Part shown: positions 47,683 through 63,609 of the stretch, one piece after another
Position numbering within the stretch: the stretch's first letter is position 1
Layout: every line of letters starts with the position of its first letter
From: Spirochaetia bacterium
Lineage (GTDB): Bacteria; Spirochaetota; Spirochaetia; CADAEX01
Reading direction: 5' to 3'
Assembly (NCBI GenBank): GCA_963668545.1
Contig: OY764868.1
Span: 3,234,015-3,298,014 of the forward strand
Length of the DNA stretch: 64,000 nucleotides
The notes under the pieces: model-generated
Database searches by the model: none
What the model was told of the DNA's origin: nothing
The model's input: the letters and a program-made list of their open reading frames with translations, nothing else
Position numbers and translations under genes: made by a program

Positions 47683-49404
47683 GTGTCGAAGAAACTAACA
47701 ATTGAGGAAATGCAAAATATTGCTAAAAGTCGTGGTGGCAAATGCATCTCAAAGAAATATATAAATAAAAATAGTAAATTGGAATGGGAATGCTCTGAAG
47801 GCCATAGATGGTTAGCAACTCCAGATTCAATTAAAAATACTGGTCGATGGTGCCCTATATGCGGAGGTTCTGCACCATTAACGTTAAAAGAAATACAATT
47901 AATTGCTAAAGAAAGAGGTGGGAAATGTCTTTCCGAAGAGTATATCAATGTCAAAACAACAATGAGATGGGAATGTTCAGAAGGTCACCACTGGGAGAAC
48001 ACTGCCGGAAAAATTAGACAAGGTCAATGGTGCCCTTATTGTGCCGGAAAGGCAAAATTGGATATTCAGGACTTGAAAAGATTAGCAGAAGAAAAAGGCG
48101 GTAAATGTCTTTCTGAAAAATATAAGAACAATAGTTCAAAATTGTTATGGCAATGTTCAGAAGGGCATGAATGGAAATCCAGTGCAAATAATATTAAAAA
48201 TGGTGCGTGGTGTCCCTTTTGTGCTAATCGTGCAAGAATTACAATTGAGTCTCTATCAGATATTGCCAATAAAAGAGGTGGAGAACTTTTATCAACAGAT
48301 ATCGGAAATAACAAAACAAAATTGCAGTGGCGGTGCAAATACGGTCACACATGGAAAGCCACACCAAATGCCATTAGTAGAGGTACATGGTGCCCAAAGT
48401 GCTCAGAGGGTTTAGGAGAAAGAGTTTGTAGGTATTTCTTTGAAACACTTTTTGCAAAGAAGTTTAATAAAGCTCATCCTGATTGGTTGGTTTCAGAAAG
48501 AGGAGCGTTGCTTGAATTGGATGGATACAATGAAAGATTAAAAATTGCGTTTGAACACCAAGGCGTCCAGCATTACAAATTTTTAAAAGTTTTCCATTCA
48601 TCTAATGAGGACTTTATTGATCAGCAGAACAGGGATGAGCTTAAAAAAGAAGTTTGTAAAAAAAGAGGCATACACTTAATTGAGGTTCCAGAGATTCCAG
48701 CATTATTACCGTTGGATAAAGTCAAAGACTTTATTATTGAAAAATTGCAGGATTTACAGATTCCATTCAAATATGAAAAAGCAATATCAATTGATTTGAA
48801 TATAGCATATTCATCAAGTAAAACCGAAGAATTCTATATTCGTCTCCAGAAAGCTGTTGAAGAAAAAGGAGGAATATTAATTTCCAACCGATATCTCGGA
48901 ACTTCGACTAAACTTAAGTTCAAATGTAAAGAAGGGCATATCTGGAAGACATCTCCTAATATGATTTTTAATGGACAATGGTGTCCAGAATGTGCTGGAA
49001 ATATTAAATATACCTTAGAACAAGTTCAGGATTTTGCAAAAGAGCGAGGAGGGAAATGTCTATCGACAGAATACAATAGAGCAAATGAAAAGCTTAAATG
49101 GAAATGTAATTTTGGACATACTTGGGAAGCATCACTAAGTAATGTTATAACTGCAAATCATTGGTGTCCTGTATGTCGCAAGATTGAAGAAGAGACAAGA
49201 TTTTATAATGAAGCGGTTGATTTAGCAAAGAAAAATCAAGGAACTTGCATTTCAAGAAAATATATAAATGCAAAAACAAAGCTCAAGTGGCGTTGTTCCA
49301 GTGGACATGAATGGGAAGCGCTACTCGGTAATATTCGACAAGGAACATGGTGTCCTTATTGTGCCAAGAAGCGGAGAAATAGTAATACAGATAATTTATC
49401 GTAA
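47683..49404 (+). CDS. cassette 1: protein with seven ~45-aa treble-clef zinc-ribbon repeats (DUF4379-like, W-C-x-GH-W...W-CP-x-C) flanking a central DUF559/PD-(D/E)xK-like nuclease-fold domain
   Basis: Repeats KCxSxxY...KLxWxCxxGHxWxxxxxxIxxGxWCPxC occur 4 times N-terminally and 3 times C-terminally. The central LELDGYNERLKIAFEHQGVQHY resembles the restriction-endonuclease-like DUF559 core. Confidence 0.6.
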   Translation: MSKKLTIEEMQNIAKSRGGKCISKKYINKNSKLEWECSEGHRWLATPDSIKNTGRWCPICGGSAPLTLKEIQLIAKERGGKCLSEEYINVKTTMRWECSEGHHWENTAGKIRQGQWCPYCAGKAKLDIQDLKRLAEEKGGKCLSEKYKNNSSKLLWQCSEGHEWKSSANNIKNGAWCPFCANRARITIESLSDIANKRGGELLSTDIGNNKTKLQWRCKYGHTWKATPNAISRGTWCPKCSEGLGERVCRYFFETLFAKKFNKAHPDWLVSERGALLELDGYNERLKIAFEHQGVQHYKFLKVFHSSNEDFIDQQNRDELKKEVCKKRGIHLIEVPEIPALLPLDKVKDFIIEKLQDLQIPFKYEKAISIDLNIAYSSSKTEEFYIRLQKAVEEKGGILISNRYLGTSTKLKFKCKEGHIWKTSPNMIFNGQWCPECAGNIKYTLEQVQDFAKERGGKCLSTEYNRANEKLKWKCNFGHTWEASLSNVITANHWCPVCRKIEEETRFYNEAVDLAKKNQGTCISRKYINAKTKLKWRCSSGHEWEALLGNIRQGTWCPYCAKKRRNSNTDNLS

Positions 49405-49410
49405 TACTGT

Positions 49411-49438
49411 CCAAAAGTACCGTCCGTGGTACTTTTGG
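49411..49438 (+). terminator. hairpin immediately after cassette-1 ORF
   Basis: CCAAAAGTACCgtccgtGGTACTTTTGG; occupies the same position as the CCAGACC hairpins preceding other attC sites. Confidence 0.4.
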
Positions 49439-49471
49439 AATCTTTACTACACCAAAAAAAATGGGCACTAA

Positions 49472-49616
49472 ACATAACAGCGAATATGCGGTTACGCTTC
49501 GCTTCACCCAAATTGCTTCTTTGATAAAAGCTGAAAAAAGTATGTTATACTTTTCCCAGCTTTTATCAAGCCCACAAGGGGCCGAAGCAACTTCGCATAT
49601 TCGCGAGACGTTATCG
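49472..49616 (+). repeat. attC site of cassette 1
   Basis: ATAAC-agcgaatatgcg ... cgcatattcgcgag-acGTTATCG inverted arms; GTT at 49610-49612. Confidence 0.6.
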
Positions 49617-50044
49617 TAAATGGCTCTGACATACAACTTCATTCATTATTTACTAAAATCTGTCTCAGCCTTTTTTCAGGGTTTTATATCTCTTTCACAG
49701 GTTTCAACTGCACTGGTTCATTCTTGTTTTTAGAACTTCTTGCTTTGCTTTATCATGACTCTTATTGGTTTAAGTTTTTATATTTTTGCAGTTTCACTTT
49801 TCTTCAGTTCTGATATTGATAAGCACTAAGGGCTGAGTCAGATTTTGTCCTGACCTACACTCTTTCGTTTCCTTCACGCCACATCCGAAAACAGCGTATA
49901 TCCGGCTCCGGCTTGTGGGATGTATTTTCAGGGTAAAACGTCCTTCGCCAAAAATGCCAGGACTTTTTGTGTTGCAGAGTAAATGCAGCAGGTGTATCAT
50001 TAATCAAAATAAAGCGGCTGGCATCTTCGGATATACGCGTGCCG
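49611..50044 (+). repeat. ORF-less repeated cassette, copy a (434 nt, includes its own ~165-nt attC 49885-50050)
   Basis: Runs from the TT after the previous GTT core to its own GTT core. Divergent copy (about 90% identical to copies b-f). Confidence 0.6.
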
Positions 50045-50478
50045 TTTTCGGAAATGGCTCTGACATACAACTTCATTCATTATTCACGAAAATCTGTCTC
50101 AGCCTTTTTTCATGGTTTTGTGTCTCTTTCACAGGTTTCAACTGCATTTTTTCAGTTCTGCTTTTACAACTTCTTGCTTTGATTTTTCATGACTCTTATT
50201 GGTTTAAGTTTCTATATTTTGCAGTTTTCACACTTTTTAAGTTTTGTTATCTATAAGCACAAAGGGCTGAGTCAGATTTTGTCCTGACCTACACTCGTTC
50301 GTTTCCTTCACGCCACATCCGAAAACAGCGTATATCCGGCTCCGGCTTGCGGGGTGTATTTCCAGGGTAAAGCGTCCTTCGCCAAAAATGCCAGGACTTT
50401 TTGTGTTGCAGAGTAAATGCAGCAGGTGTATCATTATTCAAAATAGAGCGGCTGGCATCTTCGGATATACGCGTGCCG
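50045..50478 (+). repeat. ORF-less repeated cassette, copy b
   Basis: Same unit; attC arms gaAAAC-agcgtatatccg ... cggatatacgcgtgcc-GTTTTcg. Confidence 0.6.
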
Positions 50479-50913
50479 TTTTCGGAAATGGCGCTGACAT
50501 ACAACTTCATTCATTATTCACGAAAATCTGTCTCAGCCTTTTTTCCTTGGTTTTGTGTCTCTTTCATCGGTTTCAACTGCACTTTTTCAGTTCTGCTTTA
50601 AGAACTTAATTCTTTGATTTTTCATGACTCTTATTGGTATAAGTTTTTATATTTTTGCAGTTTCACTTCTCTTCAGTTCCGATATTGATAAGCACAAAGG
50701 GCTGAGTCAGATTTTGTCCTGACCTACTCTCTTTCGTTTTCTTCACGCCACTTCCGAAAACAGCGTATATCCGGCTCCGGCTTGCGGGGTGTATTTCCAA
50801 GGTAAAGCGTCCTTCGCCAAAAATGCCAGGACTTTTTGTGTTGCAGAGTAAATGCAGCAGGTGTATCATTAATCAAAATAAAGCGGCTGACATCTTCGGA
50901 TATACGCGTGCCG
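50479..50913 (+). repeat. ORF-less repeated cassette, copy c (identical to copy f)
   Basis: The 435-nt unit is identical base-for-base to 59612-60046. Identity starts and stops at the GTT cores. Confidence 0.65.
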
Positions 50914-50937
50914 TTATTCGTAATTTTCAGGCAAGAT

Positions 50938-50967
50938 ATTGCCCGGACCTCCCGGACGACACGGGCA
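50938..50967 (+). promoter_or_regulatory. conserved GC-rich hairpin module at 5' end of cassette (variant GCCCGGacctcccggacgacaCGGGC)
   Basis: About 25 nt downstream of the GTT core. Related modules at 53804, 56800, 58078, 60077 and 63524. Confidence 0.45.
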
Positions 50968-51004
50968 AAAGATTTAAAAAATATTTATTTTGCAGGAGAA
51001 AAAA

Positions 51005-51787
51005 ATGTTTTATGAGGAAATAAATAAAAGAACATGGAATGCAGCTAAACAATATTTAATAAATTTGTGTAAAGAAAGTTCGCATTGGATTTTTAGAGGT
51101 CAGTCAAATCCGGATTGGGAAGTAACTTCAACAATAGAAAGAGAATTAAGATATAGTGACCAAGAAAATTCTTCGATAGAAAATAAATTAATATCCGAAT
51201 TCAAAAGGGCTGCTCCCAATTATTTAAATCAAAACCAGATTCCTGCAAAACTGGTTGAATGGATGGCCTTAATGCAACATTACGGAGCTCCAACTCGTTT
51301 AGTTGATTTTACTAAATCTCCATATATTGCAACATTCTTTGCTTTTGAAAATATCTTTGAAAATTACAAATATGTTACAGTATGGGCAGTAGAAAGCTAC
51401 AAATTGAAGCAATTAGCTAATGAAGTGTATATAGATGATGATGTTCCCCAATTAATGAAAAATAATAAATATTTGGTATATCCTATTGAACCTTTTATAA
51501 TGAATGAAAGATTCGAAAAACAACAAGGGACATTTTTAATTACAGGAAACATTAATCAATCACTAGCTACAAATTTTATCGAAATGGGCTTATTAGAAGA
51601 TATGGGAATTATTAAAAAAATTAATATTCCAAAAATAGAAAAAAATAGTGTTATTCAAGACTTAAATTTAATGAATATCAATCCTGTAACTCTTTTTCCT
51701 GGTTTAGATGGATATTCGCGATACATAAAAAAAATGACAGATGCAATTTATAAAAAAGATTTTACTTATTTTAAAAGAGGAAATTAA
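51005..51787 (+). CDS. cassette: FRG-domain protein
   Basis: HWIFRGQSNPDWEV motif (FRG). ATG at 51005 with a GGAG RBS (the ORF track's TTG at 50990 is inside the conserved hairpin module). Confidence 0.65.
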   Translation: MFYEEINKRTWNAAKQYLINLCKESSHWIFRGQSNPDWEVTSTIERELRYSDQENSSIENKLISEFKRAAPNYLNQNQIPAKLVEWMALMQHYGAPTRLVDFTKSPYIATFFAFENIFENYKYVTVWAVESYKLKQLANEVYIDDDVPQLMKNNKYLVYPIEPFIMNERFEKQQGTFLITGNINQSLATNFIEMGLLEDMGIIKKINIPKIEKNSVIQDLNLMNINPVTLFPGLDGYSRYIKKMTDAIYKKDFTYFKRGN

Positions 51788-51859
51788 AATATTGCGACAA
51801 GTTATAAACAATTCAGAACTGGCTCCGCCGGACGGTCTGAAGAAGAGCCTGAAAACTAC

Positions 51860-52028
51860 GCATAACAGAGAATACCCGGTTCAGGCATAAGTAGTAAAAG
51901 TATGGGGCTTAACTGCCGTTCACCCAAAATGTCGGGACTTTTGTTGTTGCGTGTGAAATCTGGTGGGTATATGATTAATGAAATATCTGGAGCATCCGAC
52001 ATCTTCGGGTATTCTCAGAACGTTATAA
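51860..52028 (+). repeat. attC site (long family 1) of FRG cassette
   Basis: cATAAC-agagaatacccg ... cgggtattctcag-aacGTTATAAG. Preceded by an imperfect CAGAAC...GGTCTG hairpin at 51817-51839. Confidence 0.6.
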
Positions 52029-52125
52029 GAAATTGCGCTAATTAAATCTAATATAGATATTATATTTACAATAATTACATATAAATATATTTGATATATA
52101 ATGGTTTAATAATAAAGGATGATAT

Positions 52126-52680
52126 ATGAAAAAAATTATAATAAGTTTGATATTTATAACAGTAGCTTTTTGTGCTTTTCCTCAAGAAGCGAATATGAGA
52201 TTTCAATCTCAAATAGCTAGATTATTTGCACTCTATATTCCAAGTGCCGATTACAGTGTTGATTGGAACGCTAATAATACTGGAGAAGTTCTCAATATAA
52301 AATTTCCTGAAGTGAAATCATCAACTTATAATAGAAATATAATACCTAATTTAACAATTCAAATTGAAAAGAAATACAAATCCTTTGATACAAAGAGTGA
52401 ATTGATAAGTTTGTTGAATGACATGGAAAAAAGTCATTTCAAAGCAATATCAACAGGTCAAAAAGTCGATGGAGTCAATTTACAATACTCTATTGAAACT
52501 TTTGTAGCCTGTCAAAGCTATAAAGATCTTAAGATAAACAATATGAACCATACAATTCTTATCATGCTTGGACAATATGAAGACATGGCTGCCAGAGTAA
52601 TATTTGATGCTACTGATGATATATTTGAAAACACTCTTGAAACTGCAAAAACCATAATAAATAGTATTATTCTTGATTAA
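52126..52680 (+). CDS. cassette: secreted hypothetical protein (signal peptide)
   Basis: MKKIIISLIFITVAFCAF signal peptide. AT-rich cassette with its own AT-rich 5' region. Confidence 0.55.
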   Translation: MKKIIISLIFITVAFCAFPQEANMRFQSQIARLFALYIPSADYSVDWNANNTGEVLNIKFPEVKSSTYNRNIIPNLTIQIEKKYKSFDTKSELISLLNDMEKSHFKAISTGQKVDGVNLQYSIETFVACQSYKDLKINNMNHTILIMLGQYEDMAARVIFDATDDIFENTLETAKTIINSIILD

Positions 52681-52745
52681 AGAATATATCAAAGTAAAAC
52701 TATGAGAAGTTTAAATAATGTTGTTAGTGAAGGTAGGCGCAACTA

Positions 52746-52910
52746 CTTATAACAAGAAATATATGATAAAAACTGAATTAGAATAAATATAAGCAAACAG
52801 TTTTTATCAAAATTGCCAGAATATTTTCTGTTTCAGGATAATTTCAGAAGGTGTATGATTATTTCATATGAAGCACTCTGGCAACTTCATATATTTCTGA
52901 AACGTTTTCG
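52746..52910 (+). repeat. attC site (family 2)
   Basis: cTTATAAC-aagaaatatatg ... tgccag...ctggca ... catatatttct-gaaacGTTTTCG. Confidence 0.6.
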
Positions 52911-53339
52911 GAAATGGCTCTGACTCACAACTTCATTCATTATTCACAAAAATCTGTCTCAGCCTTTTTTCCATGGTTTTGTGTCTCATTTCTCGGTTTC
53001 AACTGCACTTTTTCAGTTCTGCTTTTACAACTTCTTGCTTAGATTTTTCATGACTCTTATTGGTATAAGTTTTTATATTTTTGCAGTTTCACTTCTCACC
53101 AGTTTTGATATTGATAAGCACTAAGGGCTGAGTCAGATTTTGTCCTGACTTACACTCTTTCGTTTTCTTCACGCCACATCCGAAAACAGCGTATATCCGG
53201 CTCCGGCTTGTGGGATGTATTTTCAGGGTAAAACGTCCTTCGCCAAAAATGCCAGGACTTTTTGTGTTGCAGAGTAAATGCAGCAGGTGTATCATTAATC
53301 AAAATAAAGCGGCTGGCATCTTCGGATATACGCGTGCCG
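52905..53339 (+). repeat. ORF-less repeated cassette, copy d
   Basis: Same 434/435-nt unit as copies a-c. Confidence 0.6.
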
Positions 53340-53773
53340 TTTTCGGAAATGGCTCTGACATACAACTTCATTCATTATTCACGAAAATCTGTCTCAGCCT
53401 TTTTTCAAGGTTTTGTGTCTAATCCTTGGGTTTCAACTGCACTGGTTCAGTTCTGCTCTTATAACATTTTGCTTTGATTTTTCATGACGCTTATGGATAT
53501 AAGTTTTTATATTTTTGCAGTTTCACTTTTCTTCAGTTCTGATATCGATAAGCACAAAGGGCTGAGTCAGATTTTGTCCTGACCTACACTCTTTCGTTTC
53601 CTTCACGCCACATCCGAAAACAGCGTATATCCGGCTCCGGCTTGTGGGATGTATTTTCAGGGTAAAACGTCCTTCGCCAAAAATGCCAGGACTTTTTGTG
53701 TTGCAGAGTAAATACAGCAGGTGTATCATTAATCAAAATAAAGCGGCTGGCATCTTCGGATATACGCGTGCCG
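53340..53773 (+). repeat. ORF-less repeated cassette, copy e
   Basis: Same unit. Confidence 0.6.
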
Positions 53774-54072
53774 TTATAAGCAATGTTTCCGCTAAGAGGA
53801 GAACGCCCATACCTCCGCCGACGGGCGAAGATTTAAAATTTATGATAAATTCAAAATAAAATGAAAGTATCTATGTATTGAATGATACGAAAGAATATGT
53901 TTATCAGAAAGAACTAAAATGAAATCATAGATGGTAAAACTTGACTTTTTCGTGATTAATAGTGATAGTTTTGTGATATTTCTGATTTTATAATATTAAT
54001 CTATTGAACCAATAATATTGAATATATTCCTTGACAGAGATTTTTACTGTATCTATCATTATCTTAACAACT

Positions 54073-55020
54073 ATGGAATATAGAGACTATTATAAAATCC
54101 TTGGCCTATCCAAGGATGCAACAAAAGATGATATAAAAAAGGCATACCGCAAACTTGCGCGTAAGTATCATCCAGATATAAACCTCCATGATAAAAAAGC
54201 TACTACTATGTTTGCAGATATCAATGAAGCAAACGAAGTGTTAAGCAGCGACGAAAAACGCAGGAAATATGATGCTCTGGGTTCAGACTGGCAGCAGTAT
54301 CAAAGTACCGGCTCCCAGAGGGCCTCACAACCACAGGGATTCGATTGGACACAATACGGTAAAGGAGCAGGCACTCAATCGTATACAGTTACAGAGGACG
54401 ACTTGAACAATATGTTTGGAGAAGGCGGTTTTTCGGATTTTTTCCAAAGCTTTTTTTCGTCCAGCCAGGAAAGACCGGGCAGTTCGGCTAAAAATTACGC
54501 AAGAAAAGGGCAGGATTATCAGGCTGAATTATATCTCGAAATTGAAGAAGCCTATAAAAAAACTGTTAAGACACTCTCTATAAACAGACAAAATATCAAG
54601 ATCACCCTTGAACCTGGCGTCAGGGATAGCCAGGTCATTAGACTGAAGGGTAAGGGCGGCCTAGGAATTAATGGCGGAGCTAATGGTGATTTATTTATTA
54701 CCCTGAAAATAAAACCCCATCCTATCTATAAAAGGGAGGGAGATGATCTGATTATGGAACTTGGTGTGAGTGTTTACAAAGCCATGCTTGGCGGCGAACA
54801 AATTATTAAATTATTATCAGATTCAATAAAAGTGAAAATAGCTCCCGAGACCCAAAGAGGGACAACACTACGCATCAAAGGAAAAGGATTTCCTTTGTAC
54901 AGGATAAAAGATGAATTTGGAGATTTATATATAAAGCTGGTTCTGGATGTACCCAAAAAGCTGACTGTAAAAGAGAAGGAATTAATAATGGAACTGGCCA
55001 AAATTAGGGGAGAAATATAA
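54073..55020 (+). CDS. cbpA: cassette: curved-DNA-binding DnaJ-like co-chaperone CbpA (J domain + DnaJ C-terminal domains, no Zn finger)
   Basis: MEYRDYYKILGL...HPD J-domain at the N-terminus, Gly/Phe-rich linker and two DnaJ_C beta domains. ATG at 54073 (the ORF track's TTG at 54031 would add 14 aa). Confidence 0.8.
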   Translation: MEYRDYYKILGLSKDATKDDIKKAYRKLARKYHPDINLHDKKATTMFADINEANEVLSSDEKRRKYDALGSDWQQYQSTGSQRASQPQGFDWTQYGKGAGTQSYTVTEDDLNNMFGEGGFSDFFQSFFSSSQERPGSSAKNYARKGQDYQAELYLEIEEAYKKTVKTLSINRQNIKITLEPGVRDSQVIRLKGKGGLGINGGANGDLFITLKIKPHPIYKREGDDLIMELGVSVYKAMLGGEQIIKLLSDSIKVKIAPETQRGTTLRIKGKGFPLYRIKDEFGDLYIKLVLDVPKKLTVKEKELIMELAKIRGEI

Positions 55021-55022
55021 AC

Positions 55023-55379
55023 ATGACAAGTCAAATATATATCCCTATCCAGGACGTTTCCGATTTTTGTCACATTAATATTACTATACTAAGAGATTTT
55101 GCCGAATACGAACTCATCAATATTCAAGAGTATAAAAATACCGAATGTGTGAAGGCTGATGATCTTGAACATATCAAGCGGATTATAGATTTATACAAGA
55201 GTCTTGGAGTGAATAAGGAAGGCATAGAGGTAATCCTGAAAATGCGCGACCAAATCCTGGAATTACAGGACGAAATTACTATACTTAAACATAAACTCGA
55301 GCACCGTAGAAACGACGTCAAATTTCGCTTTATAGAATTACCCAAGCAAAAGGGTTTATTGATTGATTATGATGAATAA
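55023..55379 (+). CDS. cbpM: cassette: chaperone modulatory protein CbpM (MerR-like)
   Basis: 118 aa, begins 3 nt after the cbpA stop. MerR-like fold; this is the canonical cbpA-cbpM pairing. Confidence 0.65.
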   Translation: MTSQIYIPIQDVSDFCHINITILRDFAEYELINIQEYKNTECVKADDLEHIKRIIDLYKSLGVNKEGIEVILKMRDQILELQDEITILKHKLEHRRNDVKFRFIELPKQKGLLIDYDE

Positions 55380-55692
55380 TCATTTTCAATAAGGATTATA
55401 AATTTATCACAACAATAACTGCCTTATTTAAAAACTAAGTGATATTGGAGTTTGTCAAAGAATTAATGTTTCTTAGGGAACAAATTGGTATTTAAAGTTT
55501 CAGATTTTTAGATTACAACCATTGCTCAAACCACAACTATGCTTTCCTGTTTTTAGTTTTCTCAGAAGCTCCAGATTAATCGTGGTATAGATCGAGGTAT
55601 AGTCAAAAACATCATAAGAAATAATCAAGTCTGATGATGTAATATAAAACAATGAGCAAATTTGTATAACATACAGTATGGAAGAGAAGGGA

Positions 55693-55833
55693 CCAGACCT
55701 TGACTCCTCCGAGCGGTCTGGTCGAAGAGGCGGAAACACTGCTTATAACAGCGGCTATATGCTTCGCCCTTTCGGGCTCGGCCTACGGCACATTTGGCTG
55801 CGCCAAACGTCATATAACCGCAAAACGTTAGCC
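55693..55833 (+). repeat. CCAGACC hairpin + short attC (family 3) ending GTTAGCC
   Basis: CCAGACCttgactcctccgagcGGTCTGG, then cTTATAAC-agcggctatatg ... catataaccgc-aaaacGTTAGCC (canonical GTTRRRY). Confidence 0.6.
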
Positions 55834-55913
55834 ATAATGCTCGGCTTGCCTTTTTGACTCGCCATCCATAGCTCGATTTGTAAGTAATATTAAAAGTAGG
55901 GAGATATAGTTCA

Positions 55914-56558
55914 ATGAACCTTTATAAGCACAAAAAAATCTTTTTATCAATTTTTCTATCTGCAATATTTTGTTTTAATTCATTATCGTTAGTAGCTGAT
56001 GATTATTCACCTGAAATCCAAAAATATATGGATGATTTGTTAAAGTGGAGAAAGGAGGTTGCATTACCACCACTACCGAAATTAATAACTTTACCATCAG
56101 GAATTACTATTCCAGAATTCACATTGAAGACAGAGAAATACCCTGAAGTTTTTTGGGATGGAAATATGATGATTGGCGCAACTCCTTTTATTGTGCGAGT
56201 TTTAACTGAAAATGAGACAGAAATACTCATAAAAATTGCTTCAGATGCACTTACACAACACTATAACTCAAGATCAAAGAAATCCGATATGGGTTTTGAA
56301 AAAGCACATATAAATGATTTCTATGCTTTATCAATAGCTGAAGTATATAGACATTCTGGGTTATTCGGACCAACCATTGATGGAAGCACAACATTTGTAT
56401 TAATTATGAAAAAAGATGTAAATCCATCAAACCTTTTTCCAAATGAAAAGCTATATAAAAACTACATACCTTGGGCGCCTAGCGGCATACATTTCTTAGT
56501 AATTGAGCGATTTTCTGATGGTTCTTTTAAAGTCAATAACGAAGGAGCCGCCGGATAA
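55914..56558 (+). CDS. cassette: secreted hypothetical protein
   Basis: Signal peptide MNLYKHKKIFLSIFLSAIFCFNSLSLVA. Confidence 0.55.
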   Translation: MNLYKHKKIFLSIFLSAIFCFNSLSLVADDYSPEIQKYMDDLLKWRKEVALPPLPKLITLPSGITIPEFTLKTEKYPEVFWDGNMMIGATPFIVRVLTENETEILIKIASDALTQHYNSRSKKSDMGFEKAHINDFYALSIAEVYRHSGLFGPTIDGSTTFVLIMKKDVNPSNLFPNEKLYKNYIPWAPSGIHFLVIERFSDGSFKVNNEGAAG

Positions 56559-56611
56559 AAAAGTACATCCATATACTTTGTATATTTAGATAGAGGATAG
56601 CCGAGCACAAC

Positions 56612-56775
56612 GGCTAACAAGAAATATATTATTCAGGCTGGAGAAGTAAAAAAGAAAGTATACAGCCTTCATCCAAATTGCCAGAATGTTTTCTGTTGCA
56701 GAGTAATTTCAGCAGGTGTATGATTATTTCATATGAAGAAGTCTGGCAACTTCATATATTTCTGAAACGTTATCA
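56612..56775 (+). repeat. attC site (family 2)
   Basis: gCTAAC-aagaaatatatt ... catatatttct-gaaacGTTATCAG. Confidence 0.6.
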
Positions 56776-56799
56776 GAAATGTTCCCGCAAGAGGAAGAT

Positions 56800-56824
56800 C
56801 GCCCGGACCTCCGGCCGACGGGCG
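56800..56824 (+). promoter_or_regulatory. conserved GC hairpin module CGCCCGGacctccggccgaCGGGCG at cassette 5' end
   Basis: Identical or near-identical copies at 58078, 60077 and 63524; variants at 50938 and 53804. Confidence 0.45.
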
Positions 56825-56861
56825 AAGATAATTCAACAATAATGAAAAAGGAGATAATAAT

Positions 56862-57821
56862 TTGAAAAATGTATATTTAATAATACTATTATTGACAGTT
56901 AATACATTAGTTTCAGCAAATGACACATGGATTTATAACGCATATAGTGGTTCCCCAATAAAAATTAATGAGGATCATAATAAAATTGAATTAATCAATG
57001 AAACAATCACAGTTAAATTAGAAAAAGACTACTACTATATTGATGTTTTATTCAACTTTTACAATCATGGAAATGATGTAAATACAGTTATAGGTTTTCC
57101 TAAATTTTATTGGACCGGATTTCCATATGAAAAAGCAGATACTGAATTTATAGATTTTGAAACATTTGTTAATGGTAAAAAAGTTGATTCTAAAATTCAA
57201 AAAATACTAAAATATGATAAACTATCTGAATTTTTAACAAAAGAGGTATACATTCCTTCTAAGTCAAAAACAACAACTGAAATAAGATATAAGAGTAAAT
57301 ATGCAACCTATGGAGGAATGGGTCATAAATCTGTACCATATTTATATGGTACAGGTAAAACTTGGGCGAAAGAATCTTGGGATATAGATGTAAAAATAAT
57401 AAATAATAGCAACAAATGGATTAAGCGATTCCAATGTGATCAAAAAATCTATAAATTTTCAAATAAAAACAATGTTATTGATTTAATCTTTAAAGATGTG
57501 AATCCAAACGAATTTACAGAGTATTTTGAAATTGTATTAAAGAATAATTTTGATGAAATGTTTGATTTTTACTGGGATATTTATGGGGAAAAAAATATTA
57601 AACAAGATGAACTAACTTATTTAAATGATAATCAATTAAGACTTTATAGAAATGCATTCTTTGCAAAAGATGGTTATATTTTCAAATCAAAAGATTTGCA
57701 AAATTATTTTAAAAAATTTGATTGGTATAAAGAAAACAATGACTTTAATCCAGATGTTTTTTCAAATATAGAAAAAAATAATATTAAATTAATTTCAATA
57801 GAAGAAAAAAAACGTAAATAG
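56862..57821 (+). CDS. cassette: secreted YARHG-domain protein
   Basis: Signal peptide; C-terminal LRLYRNAFFAKDGYIFKSKDLQNYFKKFDWY matches the YARHG-domain pattern. Confidence 0.6.
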   Translation: MKNVYLIILLLTVNTLVSANDTWIYNAYSGSPIKINEDHNKIELINETITVKLEKDYYYIDVLFNFYNHGNDVNTVIGFPKFYWTGFPYEKADTEFIDFETFVNGKKVDSKIQKILKYDKLSEFLTKEVYIPSKSKTTTEIRYKSKYATYGGMGHKSVPYLYGTGKTWAKESWDIDVKIINNSNKWIKRFQCDQKIYKFSNKNNVIDLIFKDVNPNEFTEYFEIVLKNNFDEMFDFYWDIYGEKNIKQDELTYLNDNQLRLYRNAFFAKDGYIFKSKDLQNYFKKFDWYKENNDFNPDVFSNIEKNNIKLISIEEKKRK

Positions 57822-57837
57822 AATCTTTAAAAGAAAT

Positions 57838-58054
57838 CCAGACCTGGCTCCGCCGTACGGTCTGGAGAAGAGCGGGAACACATCTGATAACAGAGAATAC
57901 CACGGTTCAGGCATAAGTTGTAGAAGCTTTGGAATAAATGCCTTTCACCCAAAATGTCGGGTCTTTTTATTGTTGCGTGTGAAATCGGCCAGATATATGA
58001 TTTATTAAATATCTGGAGTACCCGACATCTTCGGGTATTCTCAGAACGTTATCG
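57838..58054 (+). repeat. CCAGACC hairpin + long attC (family 1)
   Basis: CCAGACCtggctccgccgtacGGTCTGG ... tGATAAC-agagaatacc ... cgggtattctcag-aacGTTATCG. Confidence 0.6.
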
Positions 58055-58165
58055 TAAATGCCCCCCAAGAGAAGATCGCCCGGACCTCCGGCCGACGGGC
58101 GATAAGATTATAATGATTATGAATTGAATTAGACTACAAAAAAGTAAAGAGGAGGATCTACAGAT

Positions 58166-59341
58166 ATGTCAGAGCAGTTCTCAAGAAGAAAAAAGGAAGA
58201 AAACCCCGTTATAGCGATTTGCTATGATTTTGATAAAACCCTTTCTCCTGACGATATGCAAGCTCAAGGATTTATACAGTCAGTTGGATATGATATAAAA
58301 ACTTTTTGGGAGAGATCAAATAAGCTTGCTACTGATAATGAAATGGATCAAAATCTAGCATATATGTATACAATGCTTCAAACATCAGTAGGGATGCAGT
58401 TAGTAACAAAAAAAGTGTTAAGGGAATATGGTGAAAAAGTTACTCTTTTCCCTGGAGTAGAAGATTGGTTCTCAAGAATAAGAGATTATGGCATTAAACG
58501 CGATGTTATAATTGAACATTATATAATTTCATCTGGTTTAAAAGAAATGATTGAAGGAACATCAGTTGCAAAAGAATTTGAAAAAATATATGCAAGTTCT
58601 TTTTATTTTGATGAATATGATATTGCAAAGTGGCCAGCTCAAGCAATAAATTATACAAATAAGACTCAGTTTTTATTCAGAATAGAAAAAGGTGTTTTGG
58701 ATATTAATGACCAAAGTGTAAATGATAGCTTTTCATCAGATAAAATTAGAGTGCCATTCAGAAATATAATTTATATTGGTGATAGTGACACTGATATCCC
58801 GTGTATGAAATTAGTTAATTCTTATGGGGGGCATTCAATAGGCGTATATAATGTTGAAACAAAGGATAAAACTAAAGTTTATAAAATGATGAGGGAAAAT
58901 AGAATTAAATATTTCTCTCCAGCTGATTATTCTGAAGATTCAGAATTGGACAAATTAATAAAAGCAATAATTGTAAGAACTGTTTCCAATGAGCAACTTG
59001 AAGTTTTTCATTCAAAAAATATTTTAGAACAAATTGATAATGACAAATCATATGATAAAAAGACTCAAGAACAAAATAAAGAAAGATTGAATGGTATTTT
59101 AGCACTTGAAAGCAGTCTTAGTTTTACGAATACTCATACCGTTATTGATAAGATTAAACATATTCAAGATTGGACAGATAAAGAAATAGAAATGTTATTA
59201 GAAATAGGAAATAAAAATAGTCAAGTATGGTATATATTAGGTGATTTAGACGTAAAGAATTTTTATAAAAGACTTATAGAATCACCAAATTGTAATAAAG
59301 AGACGGATAATGCAAAAGAAATTATAGAACAGATAGATTAA
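58166..59341 (+). CDS. cassette: HAD-like hydrolase with C-terminal extension
   Basis: CYDFDKTLSP (DxDxT motif I) and IYIGDSDTD (motif IV); 391 aa. Confidence 0.55.
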   Translation: MSEQFSRRKKEENPVIAICYDFDKTLSPDDMQAQGFIQSVGYDIKTFWERSNKLATDNEMDQNLAYMYTMLQTSVGMQLVTKKVLREYGEKVTLFPGVEDWFSRIRDYGIKRDVIIEHYIISSGLKEMIEGTSVAKEFEKIYASSFYFDEYDIAKWPAQAINYTNKTQFLFRIEKGVLDINDQSVNDSFSSDKIRVPFRNIIYIGDSDTDIPCMKLVNSYGGHSIGVYNVETKDKTKVYKMMRENRIKYFSPADYSEDSELDKLIKAIIVRTVSNEQLEVFHSKNILEQIDNDKSYDKKTQEQNKERLNGILALESSLSFTNTHTVIDKIKHIQDWTDKEIEMLLEIGNKNSQVWYILGDLDVKNFYKRLIESPNCNKETDNAKEIIEQID

Positions 59342-59399
59342 ACTAAGATTATCTAAAAATAATGTTATCTTGAAATATAATCGAGAGATAGATAAAAAG

Positions 59400-59617
59400 C
59401 CAGACCTTGACTCCGTCGTACGGCTTGGACAAGAGAGGGGGGCACATCCGATAACAGAGAATACCCGGTTCAGGCATAAGCAGTAAAAGTTTGGGGCTTA
59501 ACTGCCTTTCACCCAAAATGTCGGGCCTTTTTATGTTACAGGTGGAAACTGGTGGTTGTATGATTATTTTAATACGTGGAAGATCCGACATCTTCGGGTA
59601 TTCTCAGAACGTTTTCG
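59400..59617 (+). repeat. hairpin + long attC (family 1) ending GTTTTCG
   Basis: CCAGACCttgactccgtcgtacGGCTTGG ... cGATAAC-agagaatacccg ... cgggtattctcag-aacGTTTTCGG. Confidence 0.6.
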
Positions 59618-60046
59618 GAAATGGCGCTGACATACAACTTCATTCATTATTCACGAAAATCTGTCTCAGCCTTTTTTCCTTGGTTTTGTGTCTCTTTCAT
59701 CGGTTTCAACTGCACTTTTTCAGTTCTGCTTTAAGAACTTAATTCTTTGATTTTTCATGACTCTTATTGGTATAAGTTTTTATATTTTTGCAGTTTCACT
59801 TCTCTTCAGTTCCGATATTGATAAGCACAAAGGGCTGAGTCAGATTTTGTCCTGACCTACTCTCTTTCGTTTTCTTCACGCCACTTCCGAAAACAGCGTA
59901 TATCCGGCTCCGGCTTGCGGGGTGTATTTCCAAGGTAAAGCGTCCTTCGCCAAAAATGCCAGGACTTTTTGTGTTGCAGAGTAAATGCAGCAGGTGTATC
60001 ATTAATCAAAATAAAGCGGCTGACATCTTCGGATATACGCGTGCCG
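59612..60046 (+). repeat. ORF-less repeated cassette, copy f (identical to copy c)
   Basis: 435/435 identity to 50479-50913; the flanks differ on both sides. Confidence 0.65.
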
Positions 60047-60143
60047 TTATCAGCAATGTTCCCGCAAGAGAAAGATCGCCCGGACCTCCGGCCGACGGGC
60101 GAGGATTGTGAAAATAATTAGTTAAATTTCAAGGAAATTATTT

Positions 60144-60917
60144 ATGCGAGAAAATATAGAATATTGGATAGATCTTTTAGAAAGTGCCTATATTTTAACT
60201 CATGATATTGACAAAATAATACGGCCTATAAGAAATAACGATATAATAAAAAAAGTTTTGAATGCATATCTTTTTAAAGTGAATAGGACACTTGCAGGGA
60301 TCATTTTATTATATAAAAATAACTTTAATGAAGAAGGCCAAATATTAGTACGTACAATGTTTGAGCTACTATTGGATTTTAGTTTTTTTACAAATATTTT
60401 AAAAACAGAACCTGAAATAGCTGGTCGTCGTATTATAGATAGTCTCATAATTGAAAAAGCAAAGCAACTAAGGGCTTCTAATTATGACGGCGTCCCAGAA
60501 AACATAAAATTAGATATTGAAAAATGGGAGTCTGAAGTCAAGTCAAGATATTCAATTGATGATATCCGGAAATTACGTAGATATGGATTTTCAATGGTAT
60601 CAGTAGAAGAAAAAGCAAAATTAACTGGTCATGAAAGCATATATAATATTATGTATAGAAACTTTTCTCGTAATTCACATAACACTGATTTTATGGAAAG
60701 TTTTCTTCAAATACAAGCATATGAGGCAGATGGCTATGAAGAGCTTCAAGTTTCAAGAGATTCTATTGCGATGGAAACTACATTTATAACAATATACAAT
60801 ACCATTCAATCTTTAAATACGGTTTTTAAACTTTCTTTCAATGATCGAATCGAACAACTTAAAAGAAAGTTTGATATGCTAAAAAAGAATAATGATGAAA
60901 CAATTTCAGGAAATTAG
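60144..60917 (+). CDS. cassette gene 1 of 2: hypothetical protein (257 aa, no recognisable domain)
   Basis: Long ORF with a GGAA RBS region; first gene of the only long two-gene cassette. Confidence 0.5.
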   Translation: MRENIEYWIDLLESAYILTHDIDKIIRPIRNNDIIKKVLNAYLFKVNRTLAGIILLYKNNFNEEGQILVRTMFELLLDFSFFTNILKTEPEIAGRRIIDSLIIEKAKQLRASNYDGVPENIKLDIEKWESEVKSRYSIDDIRKLRRYGFSMVSVEEKAKLTGHESIYNIMYRNFSRNSHNTDFMESFLQIQAYEADGYEELQVSRDSIAMETTFITIYNTIQSLNTVFKLSFNDRIEQLKRKFDMLKKNNDETISGN

Positions 60918-60958
60918 ATCATTCAATATTTTAGGAATTATCAAGGAGTATATAACTC

Positions 60959-61819
60959 ATGCTTGTAATTAAAAATTATATTTTTTCCTATTTTAATAGT
61001 ATTTCATATGAAATATGGATTGGAGCTATAATTGGAGCAATTATTTCTGCTTTGTTTATGTTATTTTTTTCATTTTTAAAAGGAATAATATTTAAAATTA
61101 AAGAACAACTACCAGTTCGAAAAGTTGTTGGTGATTTTGCAAATGACGAACAAATATGTAGTATCTTTTTAAAAAACCTTTACTCACATAATTATGAATA
61201 TCTATCAAATGAACCCAATTTTTTCCCACCTTATACGAAAAATACTCAAAGAGAATGGCAGAATATTCCATTTGTAATTGCTAATTCAGATTTCCAAGCT
61301 GCTACGGATTTTACAAACATCCTTGGACAAATAGGAAAAAGAAAAAATATTATTTTTCGATCAATTGAAAATGAGTGGGATTTGTGGTCAGAAAACATAT
61401 TATCTATTGGAGGCAATTATAAAACTGAAAAAATATTTGAATTGTCAAATAATAAATACGTGGAAATCACAGAAAATAATTCTTTTAAATTTAATGACCA
61501 CAGTGAATTATTTTTTTCTAAAGATAATAATGATTTCGGACTGATATATAAAGCTACAAATCCAGCAACACAGAAAAAATGTTTTGTTATAATGGGTATT
61601 GGTGTAGAAGGAACAAAAGCTGCAAGCTATTATTTTAGAACAAACTTATCTCAAATTGGTAAAATGTTTGGTAAAAATGACTTTGCATTGTTAGTTAAGA
61701 TAAAAATTGGACAAGGTAGAGAAAATTCTAAATTAGCCTGGTATCTTCCCAATATTTCTTTAAGTTCAAAACTATGTCATCCATTGATTTGGAAAAGAAT
61801 ATTTTCAATAATTAAATAA
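60959..61819 (+). CDS. cassette gene 2 of 2: membrane-anchored hypothetical protein (N-terminal TM helix + ~240-aa cytoplasmic domain)
   Basis: IWIGAIIGAIISALFMLFFSFL TM. GGAG RBS 8 nt upstream. No attC between it and gene 1. Confidence 0.5.
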   Translation: MLVIKNYIFSYFNSISYEIWIGAIIGAIISALFMLFFSFLKGIIFKIKEQLPVRKVVGDFANDEQICSIFLKNLYSHNYEYLSNEPNFFPPYTKNTQREWQNIPFVIANSDFQAATDFTNILGQIGKRKNIIFRSIENEWDLWSENILSIGGNYKTEKIFELSNNKYVEITENNSFKFNDHSELFFSKDNNDFGLIYKATNPATQKKCFVIMGIGVEGTKAASYYFRTNLSQIGKMFGKNDFALLVKIKIGQGRENSKLAWYLPNISLSSKLCHPLIWKRIFSIIK

Positions 61820-61943
61820 GCAATTTAATCAATCACGGGATAGACAGTATAAAATTATTATTAAAAATAAAAAATTAAGTAGCTTTCAAAAAAATATTAT
61901 TAACATATTTTCCGTACAATTTTTTTATGTAGACAGAAAAGAT

Positions 61944-62155
61944 CCAGACCTTGACTCCGCCGTGCGGTCTGGTCGAAGAGTGGGAACACTTCAGATAACA
62001 AGAAATATATGATTCAAGCTGGAAAAGAGTAAATGACAGAAAACAGCTTTCATCCAAATTGCCAGAACGTTTTCTATTTCTGTATAGTTGCAGCAGGTGT
62101 AAGATTATTTCATATAGAGCGGTCTGGCAACTACATATATTTCTGAAACGTTATT
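61944..62155 (+). repeat. CCAGACC hairpin + attC (family 2)
   Basis: CCAGACCttgactccgccgtgcGGTCTGG ... caGATAAC-aagaaatatatg ... ttgccag/ctggcaa ... catatatttct-gaaacGTTATTTG. Confidence 0.6.
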
Positions 62156-62171
62156 TGCAAGGCTAAAATTG

Positions 62172-63508
62172 TCCAACCAGGACATGGGTAACGATTTAAC
62201 TTCAGGACATAGGTAACACTTTTACAGGAATCTTTCCGAAACCTTTAATAAAAAAGGGAGGAAAGAAATGCCCTGGAAGGAGACTTATGTTATGGATCAA
62301 AGAAAAGAATTCGTACTGGAAGCAATGGATCCTCTCTGCAATTTTACTAAGCTTTGTAGTAAATACGGCATTTCAACTAAGACAGGATATAAGTGGAAAA
62401 GCCGTTTTATACAAGAAGGTTTTGCAGGCCTTTTTGATCAGTCGAAAAGACCTGATAATTCACCAACTCAAATAGATGAAGAGACGATACTTGAGATAAT
62501 AAAATTAAAAATAAAGAAAAAACACTGGGGGCCAAAGAAAATAAGAGAGATTTACAGGCAAAAACATCCTGATGAAATAATACCATGTCTTACCAGTGTC
62601 GAAAGAATATTAAGAAAAGCAGGTCTTATTAAAAAACGAAAGCGGAATCGGACAGGCAGTGGAATTAGACTTCAAACAAATGCTGTAGCTGAAAAGCCTA
62701 ATGATGTATGGACAGTAGATTTTAAAGGTTGGTGGTATACCCAAGATAAAGAAAAAGTGAATCCGTTAACTGTAAGAGATGATTTTTCAAAATACATTTT
62801 ATGCATAAAAGCTCTTGATAAAGGGGATACAGCTTCTGTAAAGGCTGAATTTGAGGTTCTTTTTAAAAGATTTGGACTTCCTAAAGTCATTCGATCAGAT
62901 AATGGACCTCCCTTTGCATCAAGAATGAGTCTTCTAGGCTTAACAAAGCTTTCAGTCTGGTGGATGGCTTTAGGTATTCAATTAGATAGAATTGAACCAG
63001 GTAAACCTCAGCAAAATGGAAGCCATGAACGAATGCACCTTGATATGAAAAATGAACTTGAAAGCTGTATCGAAGGAAATATTCTGCTGCACCAGAAAGA
63101 GTTTGACAGGTGGCGTAAAGAGTTCAATAACGAGAGGCCTCATGAAGCTTTAGGAATGAAAACTCCTGCTATGGTTTATACTGCATCAGAAAATAAATAT
63201 GACGGAATCATTGAGGACTTGGAATATCCCGGAACATTCAGGACACGGTTGGTAAATAACAGGGGTTATATAAGCATTAAAAGACGAATGTTCTTTATTG
63301 GTAATCCTTTCATGGGTTATTATGTAGGTATAAGACCGCAAAAGGACTGACAGCAGAATGTCTGGTTCGGTGATTATTTTTTAGGATCTTTGGATATGGA
63401 TACAGGATTATTACAGCCTGAGTCTATTGTGAAATTTAATAAGGGCAATTTAAGAAAACCGTTACCCATGTCTTGAAGGGGGACTGTTACCTATGTCCTG
63501 AAGTTGGA
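62172..63508 (+). mobile_element. IS481-family-like insertion sequence inserted about 20 nt downstream of an attC core, inside the conserved 5' module of the next cassette
   Basis: Ends TGTCCAACCAGGACATGGGTAAC (left) and GTTACCTATGTCCTGAAGTTGGAC (right, reverse-complementary). Each end carries two tandem copies of a ~17-nt CAGGACATRGGTAAC motif. Confidence 0.65.
62268..63350 (+). CDS. IS481-family transposase (HTH + rve DDE integrase core)
   Basis: N-terminal HTH; DVWTVDFKGW ... D ... E rve catalytic core; 360 aa single ORF. Confidence 0.75.
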   Translation: MPWKETYVMDQRKEFVLEAMDPLCNFTKLCSKYGISTKTGYKWKSRFIQEGFAGLFDQSKRPDNSPTQIDEETILEIIKLKIKKKHWGPKKIREIYRQKHPDEIIPCLTSVERILRKAGLIKKRKRNRTGSGIRLQTNAVAEKPNDVWTVDFKGWWYTQDKEKVNPLTVRDDFSKYILCIKALDKGDTASVKAEFEVLFKRFGLPKVIRSDNGPPFASRMSLLGLTKLSVWWMALGIQLDRIEPGKPQQNGSHERMHLDMKNELESCIEGNILLHQKEFDRWRKEFNNERPHEALGMKTPAMVYTASENKYDGIIEDLEYPGTFRTRLVNNRGYISIKRRMFFIGNPFMGYYVGIRPQKD

Positions 63509-63523
63509 CCCGCCAAGAGGAAG

Positions 63524-63548
63524 ACGCCCGGACCTCCGGCCTACGGGC
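63524..63548 (+). promoter_or_regulatory. conserved GC hairpin module (CGCCCGGacctccggcctaCGGGCG)
   Basis: Same module as at 56800, 58078 and 60077, here immediately after the IS right end. Confidence 0.45.
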
Positions 63549-63609
63549 GAAGAAAAAATGTAATTTAAAACAGAATTCGCTTTTTAGAGATGAATAATAA
63601 GGAAGATAA

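Follow-up and report, generated by a model that had tools for sequence, protein, structure and literature searches.

Long attC-type sites, paired cassette-end hairpins and a recombinase without the IntI additional domain in a probable integron-like platform of Spirochaetia

The additional domain of the integron integrase IntI (the I2 helix, near patch III) is held to be necessary for recognition of the folded attC site, and evolution experiments point to the gain of this helix as the step that enabled single-strand recombination. Canonical attC sites are 57-141 nt long, with a roughly symmetric unpaired spacer and with extrahelical bases on the R''-L'' arm; both the detection and the theory of integrons rest on the additional domain and on this fold, and detection tools discard recombinases that lack the domain. 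The descriptions of bacterial and archaeal integrons that were consulted (PMC4889954, PMC8352920, PMC9668308) all take an IntI with the additional domain as the defining feature, and one earlier survey had met no more than four intermediate cases, none of them with as many as three sites; our own literature search for an integron without the domain returned nothing relevant. Here we analysed a stretch of 64,000 nt from the Spirochaetia bacterium contig OY764868.1 (assembly GCA_963668545.1; hereafter the window), the last 17 kb of which form a + strand cassette array with 15 attC-type imperfect palindromes (47517-62152; Table 1) beside a tyrosine recombinase gene. Because the cassettes are co-oriented, their boundaries fall at G|TT and the attI is followed by differing first cassettes in related loci, the platform was read as an integron: the sites are probably the attC sites of a sedentary chromosomal integron-like platform, carried by a Spirochaetia lineage that departs from textbook integrons, and together with the neighbouring recombinase they look like a distinct integron variant.

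The sites were located by a direct-repeat search and a purpose-written detector (AAC, 0-1 nt, a 9-nt arm, the reverse complement of the arm, 4-5 nt, CGTT). Measured from AAC to GTT, 12 of the 15 are 156-162 nt long, the other three being 137, 84 and 83 nt. The first-pass annotation of this DNA had described attC-type sites in several sequence families, which was borne out: each of its nine coordinate ranges is a real imperfect palindrome that opens with ..AAC and closes with GTT.., as is the site of the repeated cassette, although the 84-nt site at 47517-47600 had been overlooked. The sites had also been called unusually long, which is correct relative to the canonical range but not within this lineage, where a bimodal distribution (72-99 and 126-184 nt; 85 sites from the window and related contigs) makes long attC sites the rule. 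The cassette boundary could be placed at G|TT by means of a 434-nt cassette without an open reading frame (ORF), which occurs in six copies in the window, is preceded by four attC families, is followed by varied next cassettes, and breaks exactly after ..CG|TT.

The families have one skeleton and a conserved central block in common, the order being ..AAC, an invariant A, an 11-12-bp L'', the interior, L', five nucleotides and GTT... The interior is a Y-shaped (branched) insert, which is small at the sites of 83-84 nt and expanded at those of 137-162 nt; short and long sites align on the same skeleton, both interior arms being enlarged in the long ones. The five nucleotides before GTT are RRAAC, mostly GAAAC or AGAAC, and the spacer between the R and L boxes was 1 nt (the invariant A) on one side versus 5 nt (RRAAC) on the other in 26 of 26 aligned sites, which implies a 4-nt bulge on the R'-L' arm, the arm that bears the crossover. 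The L stems are mostly perfect and without a bulged base, and neither the near-symmetric unpaired spacer nor the extrahelical R''-L'' bases of canonical attC were found. The inverse-core/core arrangement with inverted L''/L' arms reported earlier holds, the L arms covarying between families, and the nested palindrome TGCCAG/CTGGCA is likewise real, covarying to TGTCGG/CCGACA in family B; its compensatory changes are TTGCCAGA/TCTGGCAA versus ATGTCGGG/CCCGACAT, and a consensus fold of 18 long sites recovered both the L stem and this inner palindrome. When the bottom-strand DNA was folded, the 157-nt (50324-50480; z = -3.6) and 162-nt (57889-58050; z = -3.5) sites gave the R stem, the 4-nt bulge, the L stem and a branched interior, whereas the 156-nt site (56616-56771) in its array context favoured a local alternative, a hairpin across the junction (z = -2.8). 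A hammerhead-like interpretation of the R-box surroundings (CUGAUAAC/GAAA) was rejected because those positions are paired and covary.

The recombinase, transcribed away from the array, matches PF00589 at E = 4e-40. Among NCBIfam models the integron integrase TIGR02249 fits best, matching in two stretches with 205 bits, short of the cut-off of 265; the archaeal XerA model follows at 200 bits, and NF011946 scores 130 bits, below its cut-off of 435. The best match in PDB, also in two stretches, is VchIntIA (2a3v), in the alignment to which query residues 174-194 (21 residues) replace IntI4 residues 182-245 (64 residues). Aligned to IntI1, the protein is missing ~42 residues around the additional domain and keeps the C-terminal ..SPL. 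The domain is absent in all relatives aligned as well; homologues are uniformly 265-266 aa, their annotated sources being mostly Spirochaetia/Spirochaetota, and two longer ones (317 and 333 aa) were ruled out as carriers of the domain, having N-terminal extensions only. No second IntI-related gene was found within the 64-kb window. Between the gene and the array, 100 nt are conserved up to ..AATGTAG|TT in six related loci, and the first cassette after attI differs between loci (the window and L003, L002, L019, L020, L021 and L072); the conserved attI and the differing first cassettes point, on comparative grounds, to an active attI and to cassette traffic, which, we infer, is carried out by the neighbouring 266-aa enzyme. 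The putative promoter upstream of the array (TTGAAT-N17-TAAAAT, from a consensus scan) appears to be Pc-like.

Furthermore, a stem that extends beyond R''/R' was revealed by comparing cassette ends: the 20 nt following GTT at a cassette's start are complementary to the 20 nt preceding AAC at the end of the same cassette, with 13.5 of 20 positions matching, where the adjacent cassette gives 7.9 and randomly drawn pairs 6.8 (p = 1.4e-8). In an ungapped alignment of 26 reconstructed junctions 94.2% of the cells were paired, compared with 63% for shuffles and at most 44% for a slid partner, a figure reached by leaving 13 of the 39 listed cassette constructs out of the alignment (A2) as register-shifted or mis-assigned, together with near-duplicates; several of the register-shifted ones left out pair perfectly with a 1-nt offset. 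It has to be conceded that the L stem, unlike the extended stem, figured in the detection rule. Twenty-five of 29 stem pairs change on both sides, and the stem is interrupted by a conserved, unpaired 2x2 internal loop, in which C(A/T) from the 5' side faces AA from the 3' side; this AA is conserved, as are the unpaired A and RRAAC. The reconstructed circular junctions folded into an outer stem of 9-10 bp, a small loop, the R stem, the bulge, the L stem and a three-way junction. The bottom strand was the more stable strand in 14 of 15 junctions, and stem mismatches were A.C on the top strand (G.T on the bottom) in 12 cases versus G.T on the top in 5. In 12 of 15 cases folding was favoured by the circle over the array, mostly by 8-15 kcal/mol, the exceptions being tandem copies of one cassette. 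From these data we infer that the extension does its work after excision, in the circle's folded bottom strand, and that it makes folding easier for circles than for sites in the array; the folded site in the circle would gain a stem of ~20 bp.

This long stem is bracketed in the junction folds by two hairpins, H1 before the site and H2 after it. The earlier annotation had listed five CCAGACC...GGTCTGG hairpins about 20 nt upstream of sites; those at 55693, 57838 and 61944 are exact, the one at 59400 has a variant arm, the copy at 51814 is degenerate, as had been noted, and the copies end 18-25 nt before R''. H1 variants in metagenome contigs and related loci likewise end 22-25 nt before R''. 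No match to H1 was expected from dinucleotide shuffles, no copy lies in the 47 kb of upstream chromosome, and neither H1 nor H2 occurs outside the array in the window (chance expectation 0). H1 stands 3' of unrelated genes (FRG, DnaJ plus MerR_2, YARHG, HAD-like, and DUF5677 plus an unknown ORF), and for this reason it is not the 3' untranslated region (UTR) of one paralogous gene family, a possibility that had been raised with the first description. Its variants in the metagenome contigs and related loci form a two-tier hairpin (a 7-8-bp outer stem, TT, an inner GGC/GCC, a TCC triloop and GTRC). Both tiers covary, the inner stem to AAC/GTT, AGC/GCT and GGCT/AGCC; among 27 variants, pairing extends to 85% of the cells, and both partners differ in 7 of 11 pairs.

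H2 (TCGCCCG-GACCTCCGGCCGA-CGGGCGA) begins ~25 nt past GTT, at the 5' end of the same five cassettes. Its exact 21-nt pattern was found on 85 metagenome contigs, ~80 of them genuine and nearly always 25-60 nt after ACGTT; four matches on GC-rich contigs (L032, L059, L077, L102) were set aside as chance, and the viral contigs searched held none. The use of an exact pattern makes the invariance of the loop partly an effect of collection. A second hairpin class (a stem with an ATCCAT-like short loop) also forms matched 5'/3' pairs, and hairpin types at the two ends match within cassettes. H1 and H2 seem to be a pair of cassette-borne modules common to unrelated genes. On visual inspection, kissing between H1 and H2 was rejected, as were pseudoknots with the purine linkers, since the loops of both hairpins are rich in C and the metagenome copies do not keep the linker GAGG.

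Purine tracts (AAGAAG, CAAGAGAAAATC) border both hairpins on the + strand, so that the minus strand reads as a GC-rich hairpin followed by a pyrimidine, mostly T, tract. At least five T in 8 nt within 2 nt of the H2 stem were counted for 62 of 88 unique copies on the minus strand and for 6 of 88 on the plus strand. The minus-strand T-run that had been described after H1 is present in three of the five copies (ATTTCTTTT, CTTTTTATC, ATCTTTTCT; tails reading AUUUCUUUU, CUUUUUAUC or AUCUUUUCU), while it is weaker in the other two; the T tails of H1 and H2 are comparable to those of the few canonical chromosomal terminators in the window. As RNA, H2 folds at -16.6 kcal/mol on the minus strand versus -13.2 on the plus strand, the minus form having 7 + 4 bp and a GGA triloop; the two strands of H1 are similar. 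In Vibrio arrays, antisense promoters silence upstream cassettes (PMC11014356), and polar antisense terminators at cassette ends would therefore make sense. H1 and H2 may, by a judgement that stops a little short of the middle, be polar intrinsic terminators of minus-strand transcription that insulate cassette and attC and let sense transcription pass. This is the best current reading of the antisense terminator already suggested in the first-pass annotation, now better supported and plausible, if unproven. Such terminators could keep antisense transcription, which would expose the bottom strand, off the attC sites. TCC-loop GC hairpins do not serve as general terminators of this genome: none was found in the 47 kb of chromosome, whose terminators look different.

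A further candidate signal lies within the long sites. The best-conserved interior columns of families B, C and the ORF-less cassettes (GTTGC and TAT-ATTA; 22 distinct sequences from five genomes) amount to TTGCAG-N17-TATGAT, at fixed spacing and directed toward the next cassette; the element sits 46-49 nt ahead of GTT, where the inner stem of the Y insert closes a 60-nt loop. Conservation covers the two hexamers and their 17-nt spacing, whereas the spacer sequence and the stems vary, and -35/-10 hexamers 17 nt apart are present in 12 of 12 window sites of these families. This sigma70-like element embedded in attC could give downstream cassettes a promoter of their own; we offer it tentatively, as a lead suggested by sequence conservation. 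As a general trait of long sites, an embedded promoter was unsupported outside the lineage of the window.

Taken together, the data could describe a functional integron lineage, in Spirochaetia and at least one Bacillota metagenome-assembled genome (MAG), whose integrase without the I2 helix reads the bulge, the 2x2 loop and a 20-bp R stem available only in the circle, and whose cassettes are insulated; we regard this composite as nearly an even proposition. Each cassette would then be expressed as an insulated unit, closed at either end by an antisense terminator and served by a promoter within the attC upstream of it. Beyond the selection effects already given for the stem alignment and the H2 collection, several observations weigh against the main reading of sites, hairpins and promoter-like element set out above. 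Some cassettes (52023-52904) and the whole array of locus L006 have no hairpin of either class, so the hairpins are dispensable for the site. The minus-strand T tracts contain interrupting C residues, purine tracts stand on both sides of the hairpins, and the loops (TCC on the plus, GGA on the minus strand) show more conservation than a terminator would call for; a terminator scan of the window called neither H1 nor H2, which is due to their long nominal loop. The promoter-like motif reaches ~8-9 bits with a position weight matrix, modestly above the ~5.7 bits of shuffles, and it is absent from most long sites of other metagenome lineages. A rival identity for the recombinase, weighed below, tells in the same direction.

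In a somewhat doubtful alternative, H1 and H2 are accessory structural elements of the folded bottom-strand substrate rather than transcription signals, with the possible roles of delimiting the stem, preventing mispairing, or binding the recombinase or a host factor like the accessory direct repeat (DR) sites of attI1. Hairpin position is fixed relative to R''/R' and not to ORFs, the hairpins bracket the long stem in circular-junction folds and are absent from the remaining chromosome in the window, the A.C mismatch of the H2 inner stem on the top strand is a G.T wobble on the bottom, and the loops are conserved (TCC top, GGA bottom) and matched between cassette ends. A role at the DNA level leaves the T-rich tails of the minus strand unexplained, however, and is hard to square with the cassettes and arrays that do without hairpins (52023-52904, L006); no candidate binding protein was found.

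That the signals act instead in the sense RNA, the 5' and 3' UTRs of a cassette pairing into a panhandle or RNase III site and H2 and H1 being stem-loops that stabilize the ends of the mRNA, we consider unlikely. Both stem halves and both hairpins do lie on the same cassette and coding strand, the + strand H1/H2 RNA hairpins are stable (-13 to -18 kcal/mol), and H2 stands 35-65 nt upstream of start codons in three window cassettes. The pairing, however, is continuous with the R''/R' stem across the junction, as expected of a DNA site; mismatches favour the bottom strand (12 versus 5), on which folds are more stable at 14 of 15 junctions, H2 is weaker on the + strand, and hairpin positions follow attC and not ORF ends.

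In four related assemblies the recombinase gene has the same chromosomal neighbours as in the window (cupin, phosphoribosyltransferase, radical SAM, Lnt, GGDEF), and the cargo after the syntenic gene differs: Thoeris TIR, Hachiman, restriction-modification, OLD, toxin-antitoxin pairs and insertion sequence (IS) elements. As defence cargo, the arrays of L002, L003, L019 and L020 (1-10000) carry ThsB-TIR with a cyclase, HamA with a helicase, an OLD nuclease, type I and type II restriction-modification systems and RelE/MqsA-type pairs. Farther afield, L006 (Bacillota MAG JAEZQY010000069.1, 9971-15870) encodes a 39%-identical collinear homologue, also without the additional domain; the array has at least 5 sites of 153-176 nt, with the AAC-A...GGAAAC-GTT geometry, the own-cassette extension and no H1 or H2, and the integrase gene is co-oriented with the array, being transcribed toward the sites. 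Firmicutes have been reported to lack integrons. L021 has a 65%-identical integrase, an attI and a first cassette, with no recognisable downstream attC, and its array looks decayed; the contig of L001 ends 380 nt from the recombinase gene, and the site detector found no arrays beside Patescibacteria, Woesearchaeota or Nanoarchaeota homologues.

These relatives bear on the possibility that the array is an ordinary integron, or a cluster of attC sites lacking integron-integrases (CALIN), served in trans by a canonical IntI elsewhere, with the 266-aa enzyme an Xer-type neighbour. The XerA model scores nearly as high as the IntI model (200 and 205 bits), and the view covers 64 kb of the genome. 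The gene-attI-array arrangement, on the other hand, is conserved in at least six genomes, each with a different first cassette; a homologue without the domain adjoins the same type of site in another phylum; the sites do not show the canonical geometry with extrahelical bases, which is what the additional domain reads; and the C-terminal ..SPL motif and the best PDB match are IntI-like. We therefore judge such a bystander decidedly unlikely. It is very improbable that H1-stem-attC-stem-H2 is a mobile or templated 'attC module' whose ends are read by an IS200/IS605-like single-strand DNA enzyme, two modules around a gene making a new cassette with H1 and H2 as scars: although the circle module is one contiguous conserved unit of ~290 nt across unrelated genes and hosts, the two hairpins are alike on the same strand and in the same orientation, and similarity between cassettes ends a few nucleotides past each hairpin, no solo module was seen outside arrays, no HUH/Y1 transposase is associated (IS91-type genes occur in L022 only), and the outer stems differ and covary, which indicates selection for pairing and not copying.

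If the proposed integron lineage is real, the enzyme could be a surviving Xer-to-IntI intermediate or represent an independent route to single-strand cassette recombination, and it would offer a natural test case for the reading of hairpin sites without I2. Integrons would then extend to genomes scored as integron-free or CALIN, Bacillota included. The own-cassette stem predicts stronger folding of circles than of arrayed sites and with it a bias to insertion over loss, and the cassette-end hairpins and the promoter-like element of attC bear on the expression of distal cassettes and on antisense protection in long arrays.

Table 1. Coordinates of sites, hairpins, stem halves and integrase-proximal features in the window (positions are those of the window)
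Feature	Position	Strand	Remarks
Tyrosine recombinase, 266 aa	46478-47278	-	IntI-like, without the IntI-specific additional domain (I2 helix region)
Candidate Pc-like promoter	47325-47353	+	TTGAAT-N17-TAAAAT, toward array; conserved in L002, L003, L019, L020, L072
attI	47340-47380	+	crossover G|TT of 47378-47380 (..ATGCAATACAGATAAATGTAG|TT)
attC 1	47517-47600	+	84 nt; ends 220-nt ORF-less first cassette 47379-47598; family C L box, short arms
attC, family A	49476-49612	+	137 nt
attC, ORF-less cassette copy 1	49890-50046	+	157 nt; cassette 49611-50046; TTGCAG 49972-49977 / TATCAT 49995-50000
attC, ORF-less cassette copy 2	50324-50480	+	157 nt; cassette 50045-50480; TTGCAG 50406 / TATCAT 50429
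attC, ORF-less cassette copy 3	50759-50915	+	157 nt; cassette 50479-50915; TTGCAG 50841 / TATCAT 50864
H2-like hairpin	50939-50968	+	TTGCCCGGACCTCCCGGACGACACGGGCAA; 5' end of cassette 50914-52022
H1, degenerate	51814-51839	+	3' end of FRG-domain cassette
attC, family B	51864-52024	+	161 nt; TTGCGT 51947 / TATGAT 51970
attC, family C	52751-52906	+	156 nt; TTTCAG 52831 / TATGAT 52854
attC, ORF-less cassette copy 4	53185-53341	+	157 nt; cassette 52905-53341
attC, ORF-less cassette copy 5	53619-53775	+	157 nt; cassette 53340-53775
H2, variant	53804-53827	+	CGCCCATACCTCCGCCGACGGGCG; 5' end of DnaJ/MerR_2 cassette
H1	55693-55721	+	exact CCAGACC-N14/15-GGTCTGG
attC, family D	55747-55829	+	83 nt
attC, family C	56616-56771	+	156 nt; TTGCAG 56696-56701 / TATGAT 56719-56724
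Extended stem, 5' half	56772-56788	+	cassette 56770-58048; ATCAGA-AA-TGTTCCCGC; pairs with 57872-57888
H2	56799-56825	+	TCGCCCG-GACCTCCGGCCGA-CGGGCGA
H1	57838-57865	+	exact
Extended stem, 3' half	57872-57888	+	GCGGGAACA-CA-TCTGAT, directly before AAC of R''
attC, family B	57889-58050	+	162 nt; TTGCGT 57973-57978 / TATGAT 57996-58001
H2	58076-58102	+	5' hairpin
H1, variant	59400-59428	+	3' arm GGCTTGG
attC, family B	59453-59613	+	161 nt; TTACAG 59536 / TATGAT 59559
attC, ORF-less cassette copy 6	59892-60048	+	157 nt; cassette 59612-60048
H2	60076-60102	+	5' hairpin
H1	61944-61972	+	exact
attC, family C	61997-62152	+	156 nt; TTTCTG 62077 / TAAGAT 62100
H2	63525-63550	+	last cassette; IS481-like insertion (62170-63509) parts H2 from attC

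The cassettes themselves show further features. Copies of the 434-nt ORF-less cassette are 89-92% identical in the window and occur elsewhere in L019 (6057-6491) and L020 (9465-9899), in the latter directly at attI; indels in the middle third mean that it contains no conserved ORF, and it may be a promoter, terminator or small RNA (sRNA) cassette. Its 5' part holds a hairpin, GGCTCTGACA..TGTCTCAGCC, followed by TTTTTT, and columns 49-60 of its alignment (A4) are complementary to columns 222-233. The first cassette is ~95% conserved as first cassette of L003 and holds a degenerate H1-like sequence, ACTGGCTCCAGCGGTAGATCAG. The cassette ORF at 47683-49404 encodes 573 aa of repeated DUF4379 treble-clef zinc-finger and CapR-homology units, with internal repeats of ~180 nt at the DNA level. 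The two-gene cassette at 54031-55379 encodes DnaJ/CbpA-like and MerR_2 (CbpM-like) proteins and has its own near-consensus promoter sequence, TTGACA-N17-TATCAT (54031-54059). The IS481-like element near the array's end, with an rve transposase ORF (62268-63350) and terminal inverted repeats TGTCCAACCAGGACATGGGTAAC / GTTACCTATGTCCTGAAGTTGGAC, is inserted ~20 nt past the last attC. Rfam, which has no attC family, gave no match at gathering score in the whole window and none at E <= 1 in 47200-64000. Among metagenome contigs, L107 (880-2230) carries a short integrase-like gene (31% identity) that runs on the opposite strand and is enclosed by two attC/H1 units, as though it were itself within a cassette, and several GC-rich contigs (L040, L095, L026, L097 and others) share the same H2 with long attC sites of 159-177 nt, whose GC-rich interior is fully structured, with no AT-rich loop.

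Compared with known systems, the minus-strand forms of H1 and H2 recall Rho-independent terminators in that T-rich tracts follow a GC-rich hairpin (-15 to -17 kcal/mol), clearly so in most H2 copies and in three of the five H1 copies of the window; they differ in that loops and inner stems are conserved in sequence, the T tracts contain C, purines stand on both sides, and the hairpins are confined to cassette ends, where their distance from attC is constant. With Xer/dif and archaeal XerA/dif, the locus shares the size of the recombinase, a two-domain layout without the additional domain and a near-equal XerA score, whereas dif is one conserved double-stranded site per replicon without cassettes, and here 15 covarying palindromes, mobile cassettes and an attI were found. 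Promoter-bearing gene-less cassettes are known from oral Treponema (PMC6557892) and Vibrionaceae superintegrons (PMC11014356), the latter with occasional transcription start sites inside attC in Vibrio. Internal promoters for distal cassettes are common to these and the present array; here, however, the putative element lies within attC itself, in three site families, and not in the cassette body, and putative antisense terminators stand on both sides of the sites. The long attC sites of sedentary chromosomal integrons, for instance the VCRs of Vibrio (~101-129 nt), are likewise host-specific and closely alike, with a three-way interior and many copies per array, but the sites described here measure 156-162 nt (up to 184 nt in related contigs), have another R/L spacer geometry, and hold a conserved promoter-like -35/-10 pair in one arm.

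Canonical integrons finally share with this locus the co-oriented promoterless cassettes, the imperfect palindromes with conserved AAC...GTT whose R and L boxes covary rather than being conserved, the crossover at G|TT, an attI and Pc-like promoter beside a divergently transcribed tyrosine recombinase, and a cargo of ORF-less cassettes, toxin-antitoxin modules and defence genes. They differ in that the recombinase here is without the ~40-residue additional domain and scores under the cut-off of the IntI hidden Markov model, the spacers are of 1 versus 5 nt, with a 4-nt bulge on the cleaved R'-L' arm, R''/R' pairing extends over ~20 bp with a 2x2 internal loop, most sites are 140-180 nt long, and paired hairpins mark the cassette ends.

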